From an uncultured Alphaproteobacteria bacterium (GTDB taxonomy: Bacteria > Pseudomonadota > Alphaproteobacteria > Rhizobiales > Xanthobacteraceae), in NCBI GenBank assembly GCA_963826295.1, contig CAWGWO010000007.1, positions 57,887 to 121,886 on the forward strand: a DNA stretch of 64,000 bases, read 5' to 3'. Below, piece by piece: positions 300 through 15,771 of the stretch. A program made the position numbers and the translations under genes. Every line of letters starts with the position of its first letter. Position 1 is the first letter of the stretch. Under the pieces are notes generated by a model. It was not told where the DNA came from. It saw nothing but the letters and a program-made list of their open reading frames with translations, and did no database searches.

Positions 300-719
300 T
301 CAGTTCATTCCGGCTTTGGCGAGTTCCACGGCGACCCGCAGGTCGATCTCGCTCAAAACCTGGTCGAGCTTGTCATCCCCGGAGCCGTCCTTGAGGTCGC
401 TGGCGACCGCTTTTAGCCGCAACAGCATGGCCTGATCGAGAGTGCCGGAGAGAAGACCGAGCTTGAGCTCGTCCAGCGCGTCGAGCGCCCGAGTGCCATG
501 CTTGACCGCTCGGCGCCGGCGCTCCAACGGATCTTCGATGCCCTGTAGCGCAATTAACGCGTCAATGCCGCCCAGCGTGCGCAGCGCGACCGCCGCGCTC
601 TGAGCTTGCGGCGTGTTGGCCTCGGAAACACTAAAGCTTCCGCCGGCTGAGCGCCGGGCCGTCGCCGGCGCCGAGGCCAGTGACGCTCCGTTCGGTCCAT
701 TGACGCGCATGATGGGCAA
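300..719 (-). CDS. fliX: Flagellar assembly regulator FliX
   Basis: 139-aa ORF with IDALIALQ...PLERRRRAV...LDELK and a C-terminal LSEIDLRVAVELAK, as in Caulobacter-type FliX. It is divergent from flgI, the classical arrangement. The start is either TTG at 719 or ATG at 710. Confidence 0.75.
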   Translation of the reverse strand: MPIMRVNGPNGASLASAPATARRSAGGSFSVSEANTPQAQSAAVALRTLGGIDALIALQGIEDPLERRRRAVKHGTRALDALDELKLGLLSGTLDQAMLLRLKAVASDLKDGSGDDKLDQVLSEIDLRVAVELAKAGMN

Positions 720-878: not shown

Positions 879-894
879 TGGCACGCAATTGGCA
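879..894 (+). promoter_or_regulatory. sigma54 (-24/-12) promoter candidate for flgI
   Basis: TGGCACGCAATTGGCA compared with TGGCACG-N4-TTGCW. The GG-N10-GC spacing is kept and there is one mismatch. It lies about 37 nt upstream of the ATG at 931, which is preceded by GGAG. Confidence 0.5.
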
Positions 895-930
895 ATGGAT
901 TTGGCGTCCGACCTTCTGGGGGAGCAGGAG

Positions 931-2040
931 ATGACGGGGACGCTTCGGAGCGGCCTATTTGCGCTTCTTGTCGTTACGTGCGCCGTTTCGACGGCGACGG
1001 CGACGTCGCGCATTAAAGATCTCGCTAATATCGAGGGTATCCGGCAGAATCAGTTGATCGGCTACGGCCTCGTAGTCGGGCTCAACGGCACCGGCGACAC
1101 CCTCAACAATACGCCTTTCACCAAGCAATCCTTGCAGGGCATGCTTGAGCGGCTCGGCGTCAACATCCGCGGCCAGCAGATCCGCACCGGCAACGTCGCC
1201 GCCGTTATGGTCACGGCGAATCTGCCGCCATTCGCCACCCAGGGCACCCGGATCGACGTCACCGCCTCGGCGCTGGGCGACTCCAAGAGCCTGCTCGGCG
1301 GCACGCTTCTGGTGACGCCGCTCCTCGGCGCCGACGGCAACGTCTATGCGGTCGCCCAAGGCTCGCTTGCCATTGGCGGCTTTCAGGTCGAGGGCGAAGC
1401 GGCCAAGGTCACGCGAGGCGTGCCGACTGTCGGCCGGCTGCCCAATGGCGCCATCATCGAACGCGAGATCGAGTTCTCGCTTGACACGCTGAGCCGGCTC
1501 CGGCTGTCGCTGCGCAATCCCGACTTCACCACCGCAAAGCGCATCGCCATCGCGATCAACGACTATATCGGCGCGCCGGTTGCCGAGCCGCTCGATCCTT
1601 CGACCGTGCAGCTCACGCTGCCGAAGAAATTTCCACAGAATGTGGTGGCCATGCTCACCGATATCGAGCAGCTACAGGTCGAGCCGGACGAGGCGGCGAA
1701 AATCGTCATCGATGAGCGCTCCGGCGTTATCGTCATCGGCCGCGATGTGCGCGTATCGACGGTCGCGGTGGCTCAGGGCAACCTCACCGTGACAATTTCG
1801 GAAACGCCGCAGGTCAGCCAGCCGGCACCACTGTCGCGCGGCCGCACCGTGGTGGTGCCGCGCACCCATGTCGGCGTGGTCGAGGAAGGCAAGAAGCTCG
1901 CCCTGGTCCAGGAAGGCGTGTCCTTGCAGCAGATCGTCGATGGGCTCAACGCACTCGGCATCGGCCCCCGCGATCTCATCTCCATTCTGCAAGCGATCAA
2001 AGCCGCCGGCGCCATCCAAGCAGACATCGAGGTGATGTAA
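931..2040 (+). CDS. flgI: Flagellar P-ring protein FlgI
   Basis: The ORF track gives 889..2040. I prefer the ATG at 931 because it has a GGAGCAGGAG Shine-Dalgarno sequence and position 889 lies inside the promoter motif. There is a signal peptide followed by SRIKDLANIEGIRQNQLIGYGLVVGLNGTGD, the hallmark FlgI N-terminus. Confidence 0.93.
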   Translation: MTGTLRSGLFALLVVTCAVSTATATSRIKDLANIEGIRQNQLIGYGLVVGLNGTGDTLNNTPFTKQSLQGMLERLGVNIRGQQIRTGNVAAVMVTANLPPFATQGTRIDVTASALGDSKSLLGGTLLVTPLLGADGNVYAVAQGSLAIGGFQVEGEAAKVTRGVPTVGRLPNGAIIEREIEFSLDTLSRLRLSLRNPDFTTAKRIAIAINDYIGAPVAEPLDPSTVQLTLPKKFPQNVVAMLTDIEQLQVEPDEAAKIVIDERSGVIVIGRDVRVSTVAVAQGNLTVTISETPQVSQPAPLSRGRTVVVPRTHVGVVEEGKKLALVQEGVSLQQIVDGLNALGIGPRDLISILQAIKAAGAIQADIEVM

Positions 2041-2387
2041 TGACCTTTGCCGCCGCCTCGTCGGCCGCCACAGCCGCCGAACTCAGTCAGACCATCGGCT
2101 CGATCGGGAGCGCACAGACCGCGCAAGCAAAGGCCGCCCTCGGCATCAAAGGCAAGGCGAAAGCCGCCGCCCAGCAATTCGAAGCGATGTTCCTCGATTC
2201 AATGTTCCAGCAAATGTTCACGGGCGTCGATGGCGACGGGCCGTTCGGAGGCAGCGGCGCACTGAAGGTGTGGCGGTCGATGCTCACCGATCAATACGCC
2301 AAGACATTTGCCCAGAACGGCGGCATCGGCATTGCATCTCATGTCTATGAGCAGTTGCTTAAACAGCAGGGCCTGAACCCATCATGA
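2040..2387 (+). CDS. Rod-binding protein (FlgJ N-terminal domain only, CheL-like); no muramidase domain
   Basis: 115 aa with the AAQQFEAMFLDSMFQQMF rod-binding motif. It overlaps the flgI stop (ATGA-type coupling). Confidence 0.8.
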   Translation: MTFAAASSAATAAELSQTIGSIGSAQTAQAKAALGIKGKAKAAAQQFEAMFLDSMFQQMFTGVDGDGPFGGSGALKVWRSMLTDQYAKTFAQNGGIGIASHVYEQLLKQQGLNPS

Positions 2388-2845
2388 GCAAGACAACCAC
2401 CATCGTAACCTCCGCCGAGGCGGAAGCCGCTATCGCCCAGGTGGCGCAATTGATCGAGAAGCTCACCGGCATCGTCGAGCAGGAAACCGCCCTCGTGCAT
2501 GCCGGAAAAGTTCGCAACGCCGCCGCGCTCGGCACAGCCAAGAGCGAACTCGCCGGCCAGTTGTACACCGGCGGCGAGCGGCTCAAGGCGAACGCAAAAT
2601 TTCTGATGAAAGCGGCGCCGGCGGCAGCCGCGACACTCAATCGCCTGCAAGCAAGGTTTCGCGCCGCGCTGCAAAAGAACATGATCGTGCTGGCAACCTC
2701 GCACGCAGTATCGGAGGGCATCGTGCGCCGGTTGTCCGGCGACCTCGCCCGCAAGGCCTCGCCGCAAGTCTACGGAGCGACCGGGCGCGCCGTGACGCCA
2801 AACCCGAAACACGGCAAGCCGCTCGCCATCAGCCGGACATTGTAG
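2384..2845 (+). CDS. Flagellar operon protein, FlgN-like/FlbY-like (function uncertain)
   Basis: 153 aa, helical, translationally coupled to the rod-binding gene (4-bp overlap). It occupies the same position as the third gene of alphaproteobacterial flgI operons. Confidence 0.5.
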   Translation: MSKTTTIVTSAEAEAAIAQVAQLIEKLTGIVEQETALVHAGKVRNAAALGTAKSELAGQLYTGGERLKANAKFLMKAAPAAAATLNRLQARFRAALQKNMIVLATSHAVSEGIVRRLSGDLARKASPQVYGATGRAVTPNPKHGKPLAISRTL

Positions 2846-2851
2846 GTCGGA

Positions 2852-5389
2852 TCACTCCGCGCGACTCGCCTGCGCGGCTGCATGATCGGACCGGCGCGCG
2901 ACCTCTTCAAGTTCGCAACGCACCCGCTCGACGGGATCGCTCCAGTCGCCGATTACTTTTTGCCGGAATATCCGCATGCTCGGATACCAGGGACTGTCGG
3001 TGCGATCGCGCAGCCAGCGCCAATCTGGCGAATATGGGATAAGGAGTGCCACCGCCTTGCCCATCGCCCCGGCGAGATGCGCGACTGACGTATCAACCGC
3101 GATGATAAGGTCGAGCATGGCGATGACGGCCGCCGTGTCGGAAAAGTCGGCAAATTCCTGCCCAAGCTGTGCGACGCCGTGCTCGCGCAGGATCGCAGCA
3201 TCCGCATCACTCACTGCTTTTTGCACGCTGACGAAATCAAGGCCCGGCACGGACAACACCCGCCGCAAATACTCGAGCTGCATCGAACGATTGCGGTCGT
3301 TCGAATGGACCGGGTTGCCCGCCCAGCACAATCCTATCCGTCGACGCCCGTGCTGCGGCAACCGCGGTCGCCAGGCATCGATGCGTTCGGGATATGGACA
3401 CACATAGGGAATCGTCGCCGGTATCGTTTCAAGCTTCGTGCCGAACGCCAGCGGCAAACTCAAGAGCGCGCAATGCAAATCAAAATCGGGCAGCCCATCA
3501 CCGTCGGCGAATATGGCGGAAACACCCGGCACCGAGCACATTAGCATTTTAAGCGGCGGCTGCACGGCGAGCAGCACCTTGGCGCCGCGCGCCGCGACGA
3601 GCGGCGCATAGCGCACAAACTGGAGCGTGTCGCCCAAGCCCTGCTCGGCGTGCAGCAGCACGGTCTTTCCGGTCAAGTCTTGCTGCCCGTCCCAGGCCGG
3701 CTGGGAAAAGTCGCCGCGCTGCGCCGCCAAATCCTTTCGTTTCCAGCGATACTCGTATTGCTTCCAGCCGTCGTGGTAATCGCCCATGCACAGGCGCGTG
3801 AGCGCCGCGTTGAAGTTGGCGTCGACGTTGTCCGGCTCGAGCGCCAGCGCCCGTCCATAACTTGCGAGTGCCTCCTCCATCCGCACCGACTTGAGAAACG
3901 CGTTGCCGCGATTGACATGAGCGGCGACGCCGTTCGGTTCGACGCGCAGCACCTTCTCATAACACGCGAGCGCCTCGTCGATGCGGTCGATTTCGGCAAG
4001 CGCGACGCCCCGATTGTTGAGCACGTCGGTCTGGTCGGGTTTGATCGCGAGCACCTCGTCGTAGGTCACCAATGCCTCGGCGTAGCGCTTGTCTTTGCGG
4101 AAGGCATTGCCACGGCTGACCATCGCGCCGAGATGGCCGGGGTCGCGCGTGAGCGCCCGGTCGAAGCTCGAGAGCGCGTCATCGATCCGATCGAGGTCGA
4201 GCAGCGTGGCGCCGCGATTGACGTGAACGTCAACGCGATCCGGCGCCGCCGCAAGGGCCGCATCGTAGCTTGCCAGGGCTTCCGCGTGACGGCCGAGCTT
4301 GCCGAGCACGACACCGCGGGTGTTGAGGGCGTCGGCGTCGGCTGGATCTTTCGCCAGCAGACGGTCGCACGGCGCGAGCGCCTCCTCGAAGCGCTCTAGA
4401 ACGGCTAGCGCATTGGCGCGGTTATGCAGCGCGCCGCGATGCTCCGGGTCGACCGCGAGCACGCGATCGTAGCTCTCCAGCGCCTCACCTGCCCGCTTGA
4501 GCCCAATCAACGCCAAACCGAGATTGTTGAGCGCATCCAGGCGCTGCGGCTCGATCGCGAGCGCCTCTGCAAAGCTTGCGCGCGCATCCTCGGCGCGACC
4601 AAGGCTCAGCAATGCGTTGCCGCGATTATAGTGTGCGTCTGCGTAGCCCGGATTTTCGGCGAGCGCGCGCTCGCAACTTTGCAGCGCCTCCTCGAAGCGG
4701 CCGAGCTCCGACAGCGTCACACCACGATTGTTAAGCACCTCCGGTTCTTTCGGCTCGAGGGCGAGCGCCGCATCGTAGGCGGCGAGCGCCTCATCGGGCC
4801 GATTGATCGCTCCGAGTGCAATGCCACGGCGGTTGAGCGCCTTGATGTGGCGCGGCCGCAACGCCAGCACCTTGGCGTAGCCGGCGAGCGCGTCTTGGTG
4901 GCGGCCGAGCGCGCAGAGTGTGTTGCCGCGCCGGTAAAGCGCGTCGACGTGGTCGGGCACCAGGGCGAGCGCGCGGTCGTAGCTCGCCAGCGCGTCGGCG
5001 TGCCGCCCGAGTCCTTGCAAAGCGTTGGCGCGATTATAATGCGCAGCGGCATTGTTGGCGCGCAGCGCCAGAACCCTATCGAAGCTTGTCAGCGCCTCCT
5101 GGTGACGCTTGAGCGCGTCAAGAATGACACCGTAATTTACCAGCGCGTCCGCAGATCCCGGCTGGGCTTTGAGCGCCGCCGCAACGAGGCGTAAGCCTTC
5201 GGTCGATTGGCCCTGCTGGTGCTTGAGCACGCCGCTCAGATGCAGCGCGTCGAAATTGCGGGGATCGCCGGTGAGAACCGAATCGTAGATTCGTGCGGCT
5301 TCTTCGAGACGTCCCCGCTGATGCAGGACAAGCGCCTGTTGAATGGACTGCGCCGTCTGCGGGCGCTGCGCCCTTGCCTGCTTACCCAT
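2852..5389 (-). CDS. Multi-TPR protein with a C-terminal GT9-like (heptosyltransferase-fold) glycosyltransferase domain
   Basis: About 15 tandem 34-aa TPR units (A..Y..AL...P....AL.N.G) are followed by GKTVLLHAEQGLGDTLQFVRY...IGLCWAGNP...DTAAVIAMLDLIIAVDTSVAHLAGAMGK, the GT9-type signature. The ORF track start is 5494; the ATG at 5389 (MGKQARAQ) is more plausible. Confidence 0.75.
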   Translation of the reverse strand: MGKQARAQRPQTAQSIQQALVLHQRGRLEEAARIYDSVLTGDPRNFDALHLSGVLKHQQGQSTEGLRLVAAALKAQPGSADALVNYGVILDALKRHQEALTSFDRVLALRANNAAAHYNRANALQGLGRHADALASYDRALALVPDHVDALYRRGNTLCALGRHQDALAGYAKVLALRPRHIKALNRRGIALGAINRPDEALAAYDAALALEPKEPEVLNNRGVTLSELGRFEEALQSCERALAENPGYADAHYNRGNALLSLGRAEDARASFAEALAIEPQRLDALNNLGLALIGLKRAGEALESYDRVLAVDPEHRGALHNRANALAVLERFEEALAPCDRLLAKDPADADALNTRGVVLGKLGRHAEALASYDAALAAAPDRVDVHVNRGATLLDLDRIDDALSSFDRALTRDPGHLGAMVSRGNAFRKDKRYAEALVTYDEVLAIKPDQTDVLNNRGVALAEIDRIDEALACYEKVLRVEPNGVAAHVNRGNAFLKSVRMEEALASYGRALALEPDNVDANFNAALTRLCMGDYHDGWKQYEYRWKRKDLAAQRGDFSQPAWDGQQDLTGKTVLLHAEQGLGDTLQFVRYAPLVAARGAKVLLAVQPPLKMLMCSVPGVSAIFADGDGLPDFDLHCALLSLPLAFGTKLETIPATIPYVCPYPERIDAWRPRLPQHGRRRIGLCWAGNPVHSNDRNRSMQLEYLRRVLSVPGLDFVSVQKAVSDADAAILREHGVAQLGQEFADFSDTAAVIAMLDLIIAVDTSVAHLAGAMGKAVALLIPYSPDWRWLRDRTDSPWYPSMRIFRQKVIGDWSDPVERVRCELEEVARRSDHAAAQASRAE

Positions 5390-5511
5390 GCCCAACCGAA
5401 ACCGGCACGAAAGTCGCGAAAGATCGCCTGTGCCTGCCCTGCCGCAAGGTCCGCGAAGATGGTTAATCGACCGTAAAGCGCGAGCCGTGAACACGGCCTA
5501 TTAACCCAGTG

Positions 5512-5527
5512 ATGGCATCTAGGATGC
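5512..5527 (+). promoter_or_regulatory. sigma54-like -24/-12 element upstream of the Ser/Thr-rich gene
   Basis: TGGCATCTAGGATGCA has correct GG-N10-GC spacing. Mismatches fall only at less conserved positions. It lies 27 nt upstream of the ATG at 5554. Confidence 0.4.
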
Positions 5528-5553
5528 AGTTGGCGTGGCAGAGTCAGAATTCG

Positions 5554-6366
5554 ATGAGCATCCAAAGTATTTCGTTTTATCAGCAGGACCAAAACTACTG
5601 GCAGCAGGCGCAGGCCCAAAGTCAGTCTTCTTCGGCGGATGCCTCGCTGATCAACGTGATGGCCCAGGCGGAGACGAATCTCGGGAAGGGCTTGGCTAGT
5701 ATCGCCAACGAGACTGCTTTGAAACGGGTCAATTCTGAACTGTCGGCCGCGGTGCAAAGTGTTCTGAGCGGTTCGACAAGCACTTCGACGTCGTCGACAT
5801 CCTCATCCAGCGCTTCAACCACTTCCGCTTCGAATTCAGCTGCGGCTACACCGACGCCGGCGACCGGTACGGGCACCGTGCCGCTGACGTCGAGTTCGAC
5901 GCTGTCCAGTCTGGGGATTTTGCCGGGCGGTACCTTCAGCATCGATGACGGAACCAATATCACCCAATACACGTCGACCGGTACCGATACGGTTGCCGAT
6001 CTGGTAAACGCCATCAACTCCGGCCCGGCCTTTGTTACCGCCTCGATCAACGCCAACGACAAACTCGTCATAACGGCGAGGAACACCAAGGAGATCGTTA
6101 CCGTTCAAGGCAGCGGGACCGATGCCGTCGCCCTCGGATTCGGCAACAACAACGACAGCTTTACGCCGACGACGCCTACAGCCGCCTCGACAAGTGCTTC
6201 AAGCGCATCGAGCAGCGCGTCCTCGGCAAGCTCGACTTCGTCCACGACTACGTCGAACAGCTCGTCCACTGCCGTTACATCAGTTGCCCAGGAGATTTCC
6301 AGCAGCGCCGCATCCATTCTGAGCGCAAGCGGCATCAGCGGCACCCTAGTCGATATGCTGGCGTGA
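5554..6366 (+). CDS. Ser/Thr-rich protein carrying a flagellin/hook-type central module (DUF1522-like); function unknown
   Basis: The ORF track gives 5509..6366. The start at 5554 (MSIQSISFYQQ) is inferred from the promoter position. Poly-Ser/Thr tracts flank the module LTSSSTLSSLGILPGGTFSIDDGTNITQYTSTGTDTVADLVNAINSG...GSGTDAVALGFGNNNDSFTPT. That module aligns with FlgE residues about 224-324. Confidence 0.7.
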   Translation: MSIQSISFYQQDQNYWQQAQAQSQSSSADASLINVMAQAETNLGKGLASIANETALKRVNSELSAAVQSVLSGSTSTSTSSTSSSSASTTSASNSAAATPTPATGTGTVPLTSSSTLSSLGILPGGTFSIDDGTNITQYTSTGTDTVADLVNAINSGPAFVTASINANDKLVITARNTKEIVTVQGSGTDAVALGFGNNNDSFTPTTPTAASTSASSASSSASSASSTSSTTTSNSSSTAVTSVAQEISSSAASILSASGISGTLVDMLA

Positions 6367-6373
6367 CGCGGCG

Positions 6374-7168
6374 CTAAGCGCTGGCGCGACCGAACTGCGA
6401 GGATAGATCGCCGCAAAACGTCATCGGACCGACGTGGGCGAGCTTGCTGTTGAGGTCCGCCCAGATTTCGCCGCCCATATCGGTCCAGCGCTTGCAGAAG
6501 GCGAAGTCCTCGCTGAGATAGGTGCCGTCCTCGGCGATCATGCATTCGAATAGCGCAAATCTTTTTTCGCTTGCGCTTGCCGCATCGATCGAATGGTCGC
6601 GCTTGAATTGCAGTTGCGGATAACGCGCGCACATTTTCTCCAGCGCAGCCCGCCGGATCATGAGAAAGCCGGCGCCGGCGTAGCGGACTTTGACAAATCC
6701 GCCGCTTTCGATGACGGCGCCCGGATCCTCCACCTCGACTACGTAGCTCAGCGCCGCCGCGGCCGGATTGGGACGCTCCGTCTCGATGCTTGACCTGACC
6801 TTATCCCAGTCGATCCGCTTGATCGGATAGACGGCTGCGCACATCTGCGCGCCGCATTCTATCAGGCGCAGCACCTGCTCCGGCTCGAAGCCGATGTCGG
6901 CGTCCAGGAATAACAAGTGGGTGGCAGATGCGTCGTCGAGGAATTGCGCGACCAAGCTCGCGCGCGCGCGAGTGATCAGGGCGTCGCCGTCCTTGAATAA
7001 CAGCTTGAGGTTGAAGTCACCGTAATTTCGCGCTATTGTTTGCAGCCTTAACAGCGACGCCGCGCAGAGGACCGAAATCTGGCCGCCGAAGCACGGCATC
7101 GCGACGACGAGATTGACCCGATTGGGCAAAACGGTCGCGGCCATCGCAGAGTTCACCCGACTTTGCAT
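6374..7168 (-). CDS. GT-A-like glycosyltransferase candidate (DxD motif)
   Basis: 264 aa. It contains VVAMPCFGGQI...ITRARASLVAQFL...THLLFLDADIGFEPEQVLRL...AAVYPIK, the layout of a small nucleotide-sugar transferase family. The assignment is from memory only. Confidence 0.5.
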   Translation of the reverse strand: MQSRVNSAMAATVLPNRVNLVVAMPCFGGQISVLCAASLLRLQTIARNYGDFNLKLLFKDGDALITRARASLVAQFLDDASATHLLFLDADIGFEPEQVLRLIECGAQMCAAVYPIKRIDWDKVRSSIETERPNPAAAALSYVVEVEDPGAVIESGGFVKVRYAGAGFLMIRRAALEKMCARYPQLQFKRDHSIDAASASEKRFALFECMIAEDGTYLSEDFAFCKRWTDMGGEIWADLNSKLAHVGPMTFCGDLSSQFGRASA

Positions 7169-7199
7169 TTATAGTTAATCAATAACCAACACGAACGGT

Positions 7200-7225
7200 T
7201 AAAGGCTGATTAAGCGCGCCGATAA
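7200..7225 (+). promoter_or_regulatory. sigma28 (FliA)-like promoter motif upstream of flagellin
   Basis: TAAA-N14-GCCGATAA compared with the enterobacterial TAAA-N15-GCCGATAA. It would give a leader of about 245 nt. A weaker sigma54-like AGGCAATCCTTCGGCA lies at 7369..7384. Confidence 0.3.
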
Positions 7226-7477
7226 AGCCCGCTAAATGAAAGGAAACGCTTGCGGCGCTTGCACGGCTAACATTGCGGCAGAACCAGGTCGCGAACTTGG
7301 GCAACGCCCGGAAGATCGGTCGTAATCGCGCCAACGCTGCGTAGATTTACGCGTCTTTAAACGAAATGAGGCAATCCTTCGGCAGCCGATCGGAAGGGAT
7401 CGGAAGACGCACTCGCGGGTACGGATCGTACTGCAAGTGCAAGCCAGTACGGCCTGTAACCAGAAGGGTAAAGGACT

Positions 7478-8620
7478 ATGTCTGACATCACTTTGACCTC
7501 GGGCATTCGGCAGAACTTGCTGTCCTTGCAGCAAACGTCCACCGATTTGACCACGACCCAGGAAGCGCTTGCCACCGGCAAAGCGGTTAACTCCGCCGCC
7601 GACAATCCGAGCGCCTATTTCACTTCGCAGAACCTGACCAACAGCGCCAACTCGCTCAGCGCCTTGCTCGACCAGATCGGGCAGGGCCAGCAGACGATCG
7701 ACGCGGCCACTAACGGCCTCACCGGCATCACCAGCCTGCTGCAACAGGCGTTGTCGACGGTGCAACAGGCACAGCAAGCCAGCCAGACCGCCGGTTCGAC
7801 CACCGGATCGGTCACCGTTGGCGCCTCCACCGTCGCCACAGCCGGCACGCTGAACATCCTGGTGGGCACAACCACTTATGGTGTTGCGGTATCGGTGAGC
7901 GAGACGGCGAGCGAAGTCGAAGCCGCCATCAATGCCGTCACCGGTCTCGGCAGCTCCGGCGCCGTGACCGCAAGCGACTCGGGCGGAGAAATCGTCCTCA
8001 CCGCCAACTCGGGCGAGACAAATTTCTCGGTCGTCGCCAACGCGACGTCAGCCACCCTCGGCCTGACCAGCAGCTCCACCGCCAACAACGCGGTTTACGG
8101 GACCAGCTCGACGCGCACCACGTTACAGACCAACTACAACGGCCTGCTGACGCAGATCAATCAGCTCGCCTCGGACTCCGGCTATAACGGCGTCAACCTG
8201 CTTGCCGGTAACAATCTGACCATCGACTTCAATTCCACCGGCTCAAGCTCGCTGACCATCCAAGGCGTGACGTTCAACGCCTCGGGCCTGGGTTTGTCGA
8301 GCGTCACGGGTGCCGTAGCGGGATCCTTCCAGGACAATACCGGACTCGCAAGCATCTCCACCGACATCAACGACGCGATCACTTCGGTGCAGACCCAGAC
8401 CGAGACGTTCGGCACCAACTCGGGCGTCATCGGCACCCGGCAGACGTTCGAAACCAACATGATCAACACGTTGCAGACCGGCGCCAGCAACCTCGTGGTA
8501 GCTGACCAGAATGAGGAAAGCGCCGATCTGCTCACCGAGCAGACCCAGCAACAGCTCGAAATCTCCGCGCTGTCTATCGCCAATCAAGCGAACCAGTCGG
8601 TGCTTAAGCTGTTCAGCTAA
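7478..8620 (+). CDS. Flagellin
   Basis: The N-terminus is ITLTSGIRQNLLSLQ...LATGK.VNSAADNPSAYF and the C-terminus is LVVADQNEESADLLTEQTQQQLEISALSIANQANQSVLKLF. The central Thr/Ser-rich module lies at 7844..8074. Confidence 0.92.
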   Translation: MSDITLTSGIRQNLLSLQQTSTDLTTTQEALATGKAVNSAADNPSAYFTSQNLTNSANSLSALLDQIGQGQQTIDAATNGLTGITSLLQQALSTVQQAQQASQTAGSTTGSVTVGASTVATAGTLNILVGTTTYGVAVSVSETASEVEAAINAVTGLGSSGAVTASDSGGEIVLTANSGETNFSVVANATSATLGLTSSSTANNAVYGTSSTRTTLQTNYNGLLTQINQLASDSGYNGVNLLAGNNLTIDFNSTGSSSLTIQGVTFNASGLGLSSVTGAVAGSFQDNTGLASISTDINDAITSVQTQTETFGTNSGVIGTRQTFETNMINTLQTGASNLVVADQNEESADLLTEQTQQQLEISALSIANQANQSVLKLFS

Positions 8621-8648
8621 CCCTTCCTGAACAGGCCTTTGGCAAAGG

Positions 8649-8682
8649 CGGCGGGGCGGAAACGCCCCGCTGCTTTCTTTTG
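8649..8682 (+). terminator. Rho-independent terminator after flagellin
   Basis: GCGGGGCG-GAAA-CGCCCCGC followed by TGCTTTCTTTT. Confidence 0.7.
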
Positions 8683-8797
8683 GAGTATTGCTTCGTTTGG
8701 TGTCAACGATCCCGAGTATTGCGATCCGCTACGTAATGTTAACGAGCGGAAGGTACAAATTGCTAACGATAACGAGCAAGTAGTCGGAGTTGTTGAG

Positions 8798-9163
8798 ATG
8801 GATTATGCGAGCAAGGCGTACGCCAAGGTTGCCAAGGAAACGGCGGCACCGCGCGAGCTGGAAGCGAGCTTGCTGCTGAAAGCGGCGGCGAAATTGCAGG
8901 CGGTCCGCGATGCGTGGCGTGACAAGCCCGCCGGCCTGCATGATGCGCTCATGTATAATCGCCGGCTCTGGATGGTGTTCATCGACGCGGTGCAACACGA
9001 AGGCAACAAGCTGCCGGTCATGGTTCGCGACAATCTCACCAAGCTCGGCGCTTTCGTCATCGGCGAGACCTTCGCACTGATGACCGAGCCGAAGCCGAAC
9101 CACCTCGACTCTATTATCAAGATCAATCGCGGCATCGCCGCCGGGCTGCGCGGCAAGAATTAA
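8798..9163 (+). CDS. flaF: Flagellar biosynthesis regulator FlaF
   Basis: Internal ATG of ORF 8639..9163. The sequence is MDYASKAYAKVAKETAAPRELEASLLLKAAAKLQ...NRRLWMVF, typical of FlaF. Confidence 0.8.
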   Translation: MDYASKAYAKVAKETAAPRELEASLLLKAAAKLQAVRDAWRDKPAGLHDALMYNRRLWMVFIDAVQHEGNKLPVMVRDNLTKLGAFVIGETFALMTEPKPNHLDSIIKINRGIAAGLRGKN

Positions 9164-9196
9164 CGGAGCGGCCGACGGCGGTTATTCGTTGTCCGC

Positions 9197-10708
9197 CTAA
9201 CCGCTCACCGCCGAGAGGTAGTTGACGAGGCTCATCTGCGCTAACCGCGCGGTGACCGACATCGAAGCCGACAGATTGTTCTGCAGCGTCAGAATATCCT
9301 CGCCGATCTGGTTCTGATTCACGCCTTCGATGCCTTGCAGCATGTCCTGTAGGGTGGTCTGGGTCTGCGTGTTCATCGTCGTCGCGTTAGCGACTGTCGT
9401 TTGCGCGTTGGCGAGGCCGGCCTCAATGTCGCTGATGGATTGCGTGCCGGATGTTCCGCTCAGATTCTGTTGCACGCTTTGGCAGAGCGCTTCGTAACTC
9501 GCCTGCGCATTCGGATCGCTAGCCGAATAGGTGGTCGCGGCAAGCACCGCGACGTTGGCGAGCAACGAAGTGATCGCCGGCTCGGTCGCTCGCATGCCGT
9601 AATCAACCGTCGTCGACTGACCGACTTGGGCCGAGGCGGTCTCCGACGCCGGCGTCGAGCCGTTCTCGCCGGTATACCAAAGCACCGTGTTCGCCGCCGT
9701 ACCGTCGACCAAGGACGTAGCCGTGTAGGGCGAGCCGGAAATGACTTGTGGGGGATCGGAGAAGAAGTTGTTGGCTGCGGCAATGGCGGATGCGGCCGGC
9801 AGCGCGGTTTGCGCCAGGTTCGACACGGCGGTGGTCAAAGACGTCTGTAGATTAGCGGCGGTGTCGGCCGCCGTCGCGCCAATTGTGAACTGATCGGTGC
9901 CCGGCGGCGAGGCCGTGGTCGCCTGCAAGGTGATTTGCTGGCTGGAGCCGTCGGGCAGTGTGAGGTCGAAGGTGATCGAATCGCCGGCATTCGGATTGGA
10001 TCCGAGATCGACCGAGATCGCCGGCGGCGACGAGCCGGAAGGGCCGCTCACCGTAGCACCGGTAAGACTTGAAGTGACGCCGGCGAGCTGAAATCCGAAC
10101 GGCGAGTTCGCCGCGTCTTCGCTGAGTGTGACGGTTGTGGAGCCGGACGTATTCTGGACGCTCAGGCGGCCGAGACCGTCGGAGCCCTGGTCGGCCTCCA
10201 GGCGCTGCGCGATCACCTGGGTCAGGCCGGCTTGCGTCCCAGTGCCGTTGAGGATGGCGCTGGTCGAAGCAACCGAGGGGCTGCTCACGGCGCTGCCCGA
10301 GAACAGATAACTGCCGCCGACCTGCGTATTGAGCAGCGACAGGATCTGGTCGAGATAGCTCGCGGCCGAGGCTTGCGTCGTGGTCTGACCAGTATTGTCG
10401 AGCGTGAACGAACCCTGCTGCGTGATCGCATCCTGGACATCGGTGCTGGCGCTGCCGATCTCGCTGAGCACCGATTGCGCGACGGTCAACGTCGTGCCGA
10501 TGGTATTAGCGTTGTTGGTGTAACCGCTGATATCCGCCAGTTGCGCGCTGAGTTGCAGGGCGAGCCCGGCCTGCGAGCCAAGCCCGGAATAGGTCGTTGC
10601 AGCCTCGCCGGTGCCGATCTGTTGGCTCAGCGTGTTGAGCTGGCTCATCATGTTATTCTGCGCCAGCAAATTGGTCGCCGTGATCGACCCGGGTCCGGTG
10701 ATACTCAT
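9197..10708 (-). CDS. flgL: Flagellar hook-associated protein 3 FlgL (long form, 503 aa)
   Basis: Flagellin-like N- and C-terminal helices (C-terminus LQNNLSASMSVTARLAQMSLVNYL). It sits directly downstream of flgK with a TAATG overlap. Confidence 0.8.
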   Translation of the reverse strand: MSITGPGSITATNLLAQNNMMSQLNTLSQQIGTGEAATTYSGLGSQAGLALQLSAQLADISGYTNNANTIGTTLTVAQSVLSEIGSASTDVQDAITQQGSFTLDNTGQTTTQASAASYLDQILSLLNTQVGGSYLFSGSAVSSPSVASTSAILNGTGTQAGLTQVIAQRLEADQGSDGLGRLSVQNTSGSTTVTLSEDAANSPFGFQLAGVTSSLTGATVSGPSGSSPPAISVDLGSNPNAGDSITFDLTLPDGSSQQITLQATTASPPGTDQFTIGATAADTAANLQTSLTTAVSNLAQTALPAASAIAAANNFFSDPPQVISGSPYTATSLVDGTAANTVLWYTGENGSTPASETASAQVGQSTTVDYGMRATEPAITSLLANVAVLAATTYSASDPNAQASYEALCQSVQQNLSGTSGTQSISDIEAGLANAQTTVANATTMNTQTQTTLQDMLQGIEGVNQNQIGEDILTLQNNLSASMSVTARLAQMSLVNYLSAVSG

Positions 10709-14811: not shown

Positions 14812-14925
14812 GTGCTCGGCGCACATTTTGCCCCACGCGCCAAACACCAGCCGCGTTTTTGCCGCGCCTTGTGAGCGCCAAGCCGGCCGTGCTTAATGCT
14901 CGCGGCAAACAGCGAGCGGACAACC

Positions 14926-15771
14926 ATGCGTTTCGAAGGTACCGGCGCCTACGTCGCCACCGACGATCTGAAAATCGCGGTCAACGCCGCGATTGCGCTG
15001 GAGCGACCATTACTGGTTAAGGGCGAACCGGGTACAGGAAAGACCGTGCTTGCCATCGAGATGGCCAAGGCGCTCGGCGCGCCGCTGATCGAGTGGCACA
15101 TCAAGTCGACCACCAAGGCGCTGCAGGGCTTATACGAATACGACGCGGTCACCCGCCTGCGCGACAGCCAGTTAGGCGACGCGCGAGTCAAGGACATCCG
15201 CAATTACATCAAGCGCGGCAAGCTGTGGGAGGCGTTTGTCGCCGACGAGCGTCCGGTGCTGCTGATCGACGAGATCGACAAAGCCGATATCGAGTTCCCC
15301 AATGATCTTCTTCAGGAGCTCGATCGCATGGAGTTTTTTGTCTACGAGACCGGCGAAACGATCCGCGCCCGGCGCCGCCCAATCATGGTCATCACCTCGA
15401 ACAACGAAAAGGAATTGCCAGACGCCTTCTTGCGCCGCTGCTTCTTCCATTACATCCGCTTCCCCGACGCCGAGACCATGCGCGCGATCATCGAAGTGCA
15501 CTTTCCCGGCATCAAACATCGACTGGTCGCAGAAGCGCTACGGCTGTTCTACGAAATCCGCGACGTACCCGGCATGAAGAAGAAGCCGTCGACGTCCGAG
15601 TTGCTCGATTGGCTCAAGCTTCTCATGGTCGAGGATATTTCGCCGGAGACCCTGCGCGAGCGCGATCCGAAGAAACTTATCCCGCCGCTGCACGGCGCGC
15701 TGATCAAGAACGAACAGGATGTGCATCTGTTCGAGCGTCTCGCGTTCATGGCAAGACGAGAAGGCCGATAG
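14926..15771 (+). CDS. MoxR-like AAA+ ATPase
   Basis: Walker A is LLVKGEPGTGKT and Walker B is VLLIDEIDKA, followed by ITSNNEKELPDAFLRRC. The ATG at 14926 is internal to ORF 14896..15771. Confidence 0.85.
   Translation: MRFEGTGAYVATDDLKIAVNAAIALERPLLVKGEPGTGKTVLAIEMAKALGAPLIEWHIKSTTKALQGLYEYDAVTRLRDSQLGDARVKDIRNYIKRGKLWEAFVADERPVLLIDEIDKADIEFPNDLLQELDRMEFFVYETGETIRARRRPIMVITSNNEKELPDAFLRRCFFHYIRFPDAETMRAIIEVHFPGIKHRLVAEALRLFYEIRDVPGMKKKPSTSELLDWLKLLMVEDISPETLRERDPKKLIPPLHGALIKNEQDVHLFERLAFMARREGR

Follow-up and report, generated by a model that had tools for sequence, protein, structure and literature searches.

Three genes, here called P1, P2 and P3, lie between the flgI-flgJ genes and the flagellin gene of an uncultured soil bacterium of the Xanthobacteraceae, a 64-kb stretch of whose DNA (the window) was analysed. 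They probably constitute an uncharacterised system for glycosylating flagellar protein without the usual sialic-acid-like sugars. P1 and P3 encode predicted glycosyltransferases, the former a distant relative of the flagellin glycosyltransferase FlmG of Caulobacter, and P2 encodes a serine/threonine-rich (Ser/Thr-rich) protein that is conserved beside them. All three open reading frames (ORFs), first called from the sequence by a model without database searches (the original prediction), hold up as real and conserved genes, and are laid out as follows (aa, amino acid residues; GT, glycosyltransferase; TPR, tetratricopeptide repeat; E, expectation value).

2852-5389, minus strand: P1, ORF of 845 aa plus stop; TPR array and C-terminal predicted GT-B domain
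3770-5389, minus strand: TPR array of P1 (about aa 1-540); Pfam TPR_1, E 3.6e-94
2852-3769, minus strand: putative GT-B catalytic domain of P1 (aa 541-845), GT9-like in fold by AlphaFold 2 model and Foldseek comparison
5554-6366, plus strand: P2, ORF of 270 aa plus stop; Ser/Thr-rich, with a match to Pfam PF07196
6374-7168, minus strand: P3, ORF of 264 aa; predicted GT-A fold, with LDADI as DxD motif

Their GC content shows no anomaly. At 90% identity the three genes have 2842, more than 7600 and 713 homologue clusters, the last of these figures being that of P2. The ATG at 5554 is favoured as the start of P2 over the GTG at 5509, because its orthologues, too, open with the MSI..SF(W/Y)QQDQ motif.

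The TPR array of P1 is very clear: Pfam scores 11 TPR_1 matches separately, and about 15 "AL..P" repeat signatures can be counted by eye. TPR matches dominated the whole-protein scans as well as the first profile search of Protein Data Bank (PDB) sequences, and the family scans were redone on the GT domain alone. The original prediction had called that domain GT9-like, which stands as a description of its modelled fold and fails as an assignment to the sequence family. Its 305 aa match Pfam GT9 (PF01075) below threshold (E 4e-4, 20.1 bits, cut-off 22), and only in the stretch that carries a DTSxxHLAGA motif; the NCBIfam heptosyltransferase I model TIGR02193 gives 19.8 bits (cut-off 185), and a profile of the domain's family has no match among PDB sequences at E up to 1. 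Single-sequence searches of the PDB with the GT domain and with P3 likewise returned nothing useful, so that fold comparison alone was informative. The AlphaFold model of the domain, built with 52 homologues, has a predicted local distance difference test score (pLDDT) of 89.6 and displays a complete two-lobed GT-B fold, for which Foldseek ranks PDB entry 3tov first (E 1.6e-8, template modelling (TM) score 0.62), followed by WaaF (1psw), WaaC and TibC. The best structural matches of the P1 domain thus include the GT9 ADP-heptose:lipopolysaccharide (LPS) heptosyltransferases WaaC and WaaF and the bacterial autotransporter heptosyltransferase (BAHT) TibC, which is a protein O-heptosyltransferase; unlike GT9 enzymes and TibC, P1 scores below the family thresholds in sequence and is fused to TPR repeats. 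Residues E42, Q43, G44, G46, D47, D226, T227 and H231 of the domain are invariant in the P1 family.

Fusion of a TPR array to a GT-B domain is the architecture of FlmG, which in Caulobacter is a protein of 596 aa with TPRs at residues 1-313 and GT-B at 309-596; flagellin is bound by the TPR domain, and the GT-B domain sets specificity for pseudaminic or legionaminic acid (Pse/Leg) (PMC7591256; bioRxiv 10.1101/2022.03.25.485807). FlmG has been described as confined to the Caulobacterales (bioRxiv 10.1101/2023.12.03.569772). For comparison with P1, metagenomes were scanned for WSGQDLRG, one of the peptides derived from the published C. crescentus flmG cloning primers, in any of its codon variants, and FlmG orthologues were recovered; the exact 23-mer of those primers had no match in the metagenomes. 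The orthologue at L131:9347-11146 is a protein of 599 aa that begins MSRKKAL (MSRKSAL in C. crescentus) and contains FHIPGARWSGQDLRG (the C. crescentus counterparts being FQIPGVR and WSGQDLRG). It is an FlmG orthologue in a typical locus, its neighbours being flbT, flaF, a FlaG-like gene, three flagellin genes, a CTP_transf_3 cytidylyltransferase gene and genes of GNAT acetyltransferases.

Aligned by BLASTP, P1 and the L131 protein are 27% identical over 513 columns (E 9e-40), a span that takes in about five TPRs at the end of the array and the entire GT domain and in which W..G..L.GK, EQGxGD...F, LAGA.G and PWYP..R.F...DW are common to both. The GT domains are therefore homologous, P1 is a distant enzyme of the FlmG class, and the GT-B domains of FlmG and P1 are alike in being GT9-like; the proposal that the two catalytic domains belong to different fold families has to be withdrawn. 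P1 is not, for all that, an FlmG orthologue, since its identity to FlmG-like proteins is 27-31% and to the TPR-GT paralogues of loci L099, L108, L137, L119 and L114 43-52%. The two groups also part at one conserved place, where the P1 family keeps the GT9-type VDTSVAHLAGAMGK and FlmG orthologues have GFSNATANLAGAAGA. (A mapping of the FQIPGVR peptide to "SVPGVS" in P1 was considered and rejected; the recovered FlmG puts that peptide just before WSGQDLRG.) To our knowledge, FlmG is the sole class of flagellin glycosyltransferase in which acceptor-binding and donor-specifying domains are genetically separable, and by analogy with it the TPR array of P1 may be the domain that binds the acceptor, flagellin.

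FlmG, the flagellin O-glycosylase of C. crescentus and Brevundimonas subvibrioides, and P1 are alike in combining an N-terminal TPR array and a C-terminal GT-B domain in one soluble, cytoplasmic protein and in being encoded beside flagellin and flaF genes. They differ in length (about 15 TPRs and 845 aa in P1, as against 596-599 aa for FlmG), in company (P1 comes with a GT-A enzyme and a protein rich in Ser/Thr) and in distribution, P1 being found in Xanthobacteraceae and FlmG in Caulobacterales (bioRxiv 10.1101/2023.12.03.569772). They also differ in that cytidylyltransferase and FlmH-type genes of the Pse/Leg pathway accompany FlmG at L131 and none is linked to P1.

The assignment of P3 as a GT-A-like enzyme is borne out by the model and by a conserved DxD; the GT2 or GT-A Pfam match that had been expected does not materialise for P3 itself, which alone matches nothing in Pfam or NCBIfam. 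The LDADI motif is indeed present, and in an alignment of 94 sequences P25, R69, D89 and E220 are invariant and D91 is at least 90% conserved; the consensus of those sequences includes ...THLLFIDADIGF... and ...YLSEDYAFC.... A profile of the family matches the A197 glycosyltransferase of Sulfolobus turreted icosahedral virus (STIV) (E 1e-4), and some of its individual members match Pfam Anp1 (25 of 94) or GT2 (4 of 94; E up to 0.01). The AlphaFold 2 model of P3 has a pLDDT of 92.1, and its Foldseek matches in the PDB are STIV A197 (E 9e-10), the GT domain of LH3, COLGALT1 and SpsA. By sequence and model, then, P3 is predicted to be a cytoplasmic glycosyltransferase of GT-A fold with a DxD motif. 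Neither P1 nor P3 has a signal peptide or transmembrane segment visible in its sequence, which fits cytoplasmic action ahead of export.

The P3 family is large (7633 clusters at 50% identity) and is covered by no curated Pfam or NCBIfam model. P3-like domains also occur fused to TPR, GT4, methyltransferase and Mannosyl_trans3 domains. Three more distant P3 relatives, at loci L140, L142 and L144, have as their surroundings GH94 and proton-pumping pyrophosphatase (H+-PPase) genes, housekeeping genes or a giant Calx-beta/AIDA-type protein; the contigs of other distant relatives are too short to provide a context.

What ties these enzymes to the flagellum is their position. The trio is bordered on one side by flgI, flgJ and a gene of 153 codons, and on the other by flagellin, flaF, flgL, flgK and flgE; the nearest of these neighbours are:

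889-2845, plus strand: flgI, flgJ (rod-binding) and a flagellar-cluster gene for a 153-aa protein; ORFs, an operon bordering the trio
7478-8620, plus strand: flagellin, 380 aa; Pfam Flagellin_N and Flagellin_C, divergent from P3
8639-9163, plus strand: flaF (flagellin secretion/translation factor); Pfam FlaF, E 2.3e-31, residues 58-170

The true start of flaF is probably downstream of 8639. FlgJ is identified by Pfam and NCBIfam; flgI takes its name from the original prediction and from conservation in related loci (76-96% in 44 of 45) and not from a family search. A scan for P3 relatives, one genome per species, yielded 536 loci, the best 80 of which (57-83% identity) were analysed by tblastn with the window proteins. 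Nearly all of the 80 carry the label Xanthobacteraceae, Bradyrhizobium or unclassified Alphaproteobacteria, and metagenome-assembled genomes from soil make up the majority. In 77 of them, at identities down to 57%, the P3 homologue has flagellar genes no more than 10 kb away; FlgI, FlgJ and the 153-aa protein are each found in 45-50. P1-type GT domains occur in 52 loci and P2 in 40, the latter all belonging to the closer clade. Three gene orders recur: fliC-P3-P2-P1-hyp153-flgJ-flgI, as in the window; flgI...P1-P2...flaF-fliC-P3-flgL-flgK-flgE; and, in Bradyrhizobium, flgE-flgK-flgL-(TPR-GT)-P3-...-fliC-flaF. Loci of the last type lack P2 and retain P3, with or without P1. Synteny of the trio with flagellar clusters, which had been proposed as a test across related genomes, thus proves to be tight within a subclade of the Xanthobacteraceae.

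Further genes are interspersed among the flagellar genes of the related loci: a CmcI-like rhamnosyl O-methyltransferase (17 loci), a pyridoxal-phosphate (PLP) decarboxylase (18), an asparagine-synthase-like amidotransferase (6), a GT7-like GT-A enzyme and a TPR-GT41 protein. Such a variable set has the look of a flagellin glycosylation island. The last two sit together between the P3 and P2 homologues of one locus, the GT7-like enzyme (of galactosyltransferase type) at L013:10809-11579 and the TPR-GT41 protein (979 aa, O-GlcNAc transferase (OGT)-like) at L013:11607-14546; one and the same site has thus taken up TPR-glycosyltransferases of different classes. At another locus a protein of 1704 aa composed of Pfam ALTTAQ repeats (E 8e-100), encoded at L018:3267-8381 on the minus strand directly upstream of the P3 homologue, occupies the position that the flagellin gene has elsewhere.

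The nature of the sugar can be approached through the genes that would have to supply it. Among the window ORFs scanned with Pfam for sugar genes (most of those of at least 200 aa) there are none for nonulosonic-acid or sugar-nucleotide synthesis, and the L131 cytidylyltransferase and the acetyltransferase FlmH, as tblastn queries, have no match in the window or in the 80 related loci; the reported absence of nonulosonic-acid genes from the window is thereby upheld. Together with retention of the GT9-like D-T-S-x-x-H-L-A-G-A motif, this lack of linked CMP-sugar genes suggests that the donor of P1 is not a CMP-nonulosonic acid. The methyltransferase, amidotransferase-like and GT genes of the related loci suggest instead a decorated glycan of the deoxyhexose type.

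The architecture of P1 and P3, the tight synteny and the absence of nonulosonic-acid genes from the window make a module dedicated to the flagellum the best reading, and we consider it on balance likely that P1 and P3 carry out cytoplasmic O-glycosylation of protein in the manner of FlmG. The flagellin encoded at 7478-8620 would be the most likely acceptor. We envisage that the TPR array of P1 binds flagellin in an unfolded state or free of chaperones, perhaps also P2, and that the GT9-like GT-B domain then moves a sugar from a nucleotide-activated donor to Ser/Thr residues of the surface-exposed central region. P3, as a DxD-type GT-A enzyme, would add or extend a second sugar; it might also be P3 that acts first and P1 second. 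The modified flagellin would pass to FlaF and leave the cell by way of the flagellar type III system. P2 might be a second, mucin-like acceptor that is exported by the same system, or an accessory factor. The original prediction also drew on the Ser/Thr-richness of the axial proteins, and it is true that Ser and Thr make up 29% of flagellin, 27% of FlgL, 27% of FlgK and 24% of FlgE, as against 10-13% of the window's housekeeping proteins. A high Ser/Thr content is usual for flagellar axial proteins, so that these figures add little, and "unusually" is probably too strong a word for them.

Several observations pull against a flagellum-dedicated module. The GT domain of P1 misses the sequence thresholds of Pfam and NCBIfam for GT9, and genes for donor synthesis are not linked to it in the window. 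P1 is nearer to the TPR-GT paralogues already mentioned, on contigs that are mostly short (2-14 kb) and have no detected flagellar genes, so that membership of the family does not by itself specify flagellin; P3 relatives at 44-50% identity (L140, L142 and L144) are likewise stand-alone genes in non-flagellar contexts. Since distant relatives of both enzymes are found without a flagellar context, the flagellar assignment derives from synteny in one bacterial family and not from family membership, and because the syntenic loci all come from that family, part of the conservation must be shared ancestry. For Bradyrhizobium, flagellin glycosylation has only been speculated on, in a review (PMC8429497).

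P2 is the least readily placed member of the trio. Its poly-Ser/Thr tracts are as originally described: Ser and Thr account for 37% of the protein and for up to 70% in 40-residue windows. The homologues, all of 240-311 aa, are all annotated as "hypothetical" or misnamed. They share an N-terminal block (SFWQQDQxYW ... KGLASIAN..AL.RVN) and a C-terminus (...SG..G.LV.MLA), and the two poly-Ser/Thr linkers vary in length. The central domain is Pfam PF07196, "Flagellin hook IN motif" (E 1.1e-5, 26 bits, cut-off 22.7), which 24 of 49 family members match; the remaining matches are weak and scattered and point to no other flagellar or informative family. P2 has no Cys, His or signal peptide and is like an axial protein in composition. 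Its profile has no match among solved structures in the PDB and, compared with flagellin and FlgL by hhalign, shows no similarity to their termini (probability <1%). The idea that P2 is itself an axial protein like flagellin, a hook-associated protein (HAP) or FliD was rejected; it has the IN motif and no profile similarity to flagellin or FlgL. Among the loci analysed, the family is found only beside these enzymes, in all of the 40 syntenic loci that carry it. Our best guess, held with far less assurance than the module itself, is that the flagellar system exports P2, as a Ser/Thr-rich substrate or an accessory protein.

Could P2, then, be what the module is for? On this account the enzymes would glycosylate a flagellum-associated protein other than flagellin, mainly P2 and failing that the hook or hook-associated proteins, and P2 would be a dedicated secreted glycoprotein (filament-associated, cap-like or adhesive) whose poly-Ser/Thr linkers are dense O-glycosylation sites. 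The location of its gene between the two GT genes, its co-inheritance with them in 40 of 40 loci, its IN domain, its Ser/Thr content and variable linkers, and its lack of Cys, His and signal peptide with an axial-protein-like composition all speak in its favour. Against it, the Bradyrhizobium-type loci indicate that the enzymes are independent of P2, the P2 profile is unlike the termini of flagellin and FlgL, and export of P2 is a prediction only; we regard it as having an outside chance of being right. About as doubtful, as a conjunction of its parts, is the fuller proposal in which P1 and P3 form a second, non-sialic-acid branch of the FlmG type that builds a glycan of hexose, heptose or deoxyhexose type, and P2 is a mucin-like, heavily O-glycosylated substrate of flagellar export that resides on the filament and serves there, for example, as a cap-like structure, a coating or an adhesin, in a cluster without a recognised FliD.

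A glycan not attached to protein is rather less probable again. P1 and P3 would in that case make a variant of LPS core or O-antigen, an exopolysaccharide or a sheath-like polysaccharide, and would be merely co-located or co-regulated with flagellar genes. It is in keeping with this that LPS heptosyltransferases are the nearest structural relatives of the P1 GT domain, that P3-family domains are found fused to other polysaccharide-type glycosyltransferases and to methyltransferases, and that distant P3 relatives lie outside flagellar loci. However, the linkage to flagellin, flaF and flgL holds across three gene orders, the TPR-GT architecture is homologous to that of FlmG, whose glycosylation of protein is proven, and the structural matches of P1 extend to TibC, an O-heptosyltransferase that acts on protein; no gene for a lipid carrier, flippase or polymerase was seen among the Pfam-scanned genes of the window or the extra genes of related loci. 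A P1 without catalytic activity, serving chiefly as a TPR scaffold, as a chaperone or as a regulator of how flagellin is made or exported, its GT-like domain a degenerate binding module, would accord with the sub-threshold GT9 scores, the want of a sequence match to solved structures and the very long TPR array, but is quite improbable in view of the strict conservation of typical catalytic and donor-binding positions (EQGxGD, D226, T227 and H231), some of them common to active FlmG, and of the confident and complete two-lobed GT-B model.

Other flagellin glycosylation systems offer partial parallels to a module of the FlmG type. The Maf (MAF_flag10/DUF115) flagellin glycosyltransferases, some of which have TPR domains (Maf-1) or a GlfM adaptor (Maf-2), use nonulosonic acids. 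A GT-A type enzyme in a flagellar cluster, TPR-mediated recognition of the acceptor as a principle and, in some Maf systems, an extra small protein encoded in cis are shared features. P3 is nevertheless not a MAF_flag10 protein, since it has no Pfam match at all and the C-terminal domain of P1 matches only GT9; unlike Maf, P3 has A197, LH3 and SpsA-type GT-A enzymes as its closest folds, and P2 is not, by the tests applied, a GlfM-like four-helix-bundle protein. In Pseudomonas, flagellin glycosylation islands comprise the fgt and vio genes of P. syringae and the a-type island of P. aeruginosa. Variable glycosyltransferases, methyltransferases and amidotransferase-like genes stand there between flagellar genes, as they do in the loci related to the window, a likeness of gene organisation only.

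We found no description of a flagellar module combining a TPR-GT and a GT-A enzyme, with or without a Ser/Thr-rich protein, in the literature consulted on Bradyrhizobium and Rhodopseudomonas. The FlmG class has been described for pseudaminic and legionaminic acid only; if the present interpretation is right, it would widen to enzymes with a GT9-type donor motif, a GT-A partner and no linked nonulosonic-acid genes, in the abundant soil Xanthobacteraceae and Bradyrhizobium. P1 and P3 would then offer testable candidates for the glycosylation of flagellin in plant-associated bacteria, with possible consequences for immune recognition, the attachment of phages or filament stability, and they could provide new donor specificities for engineered cytoplasmic O-glycosylation. 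P2 represents, in any case, an uncharacterised and conserved family of Ser/Thr-rich IN-motif proteins. At the FlmG locus L131 there is also a Ser/Thr/Gly-rich protein (955 aa, L131:1174-4041, minus strand, beyond the flagellin genes), which has no informative Pfam match; its matches to P2 are all insignificant, one of them (E 0.07) falling over the IN-motif region.

Some features of the surrounding cluster may be noted here. A scan of 2300-9300 for promoters and terminators returned sites no more numerous than in shuffled sequence. flbT has no homologue anywhere in the window (tblastn with FlbT of L131), though flaF is present; 46 of the 80 related loci have flbT, mostly between flaF and fliC, and the window's closest relatives (L001, for example) are without it. 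Divergent from flgI is an ORF of 139 aa (300-719, minus strand), which presumably, by position only, corresponds to fliX of Caulobacter-type clusters. A MoxR-like AAA_5 ATPase (Pfam) is encoded at 14896-15771 on the plus strand, adjoining flgE, and what appears from its sequence to be a MoxR-like AAA protein adjoins the flmH-like gene in two Caulobacter-type FlmG loci (L131:12493-13392 and L112:9466-10335). The presence of a MoxR-like gene both in the window and in FlmG loci may be a coincidence or may mark a conserved neighbour.

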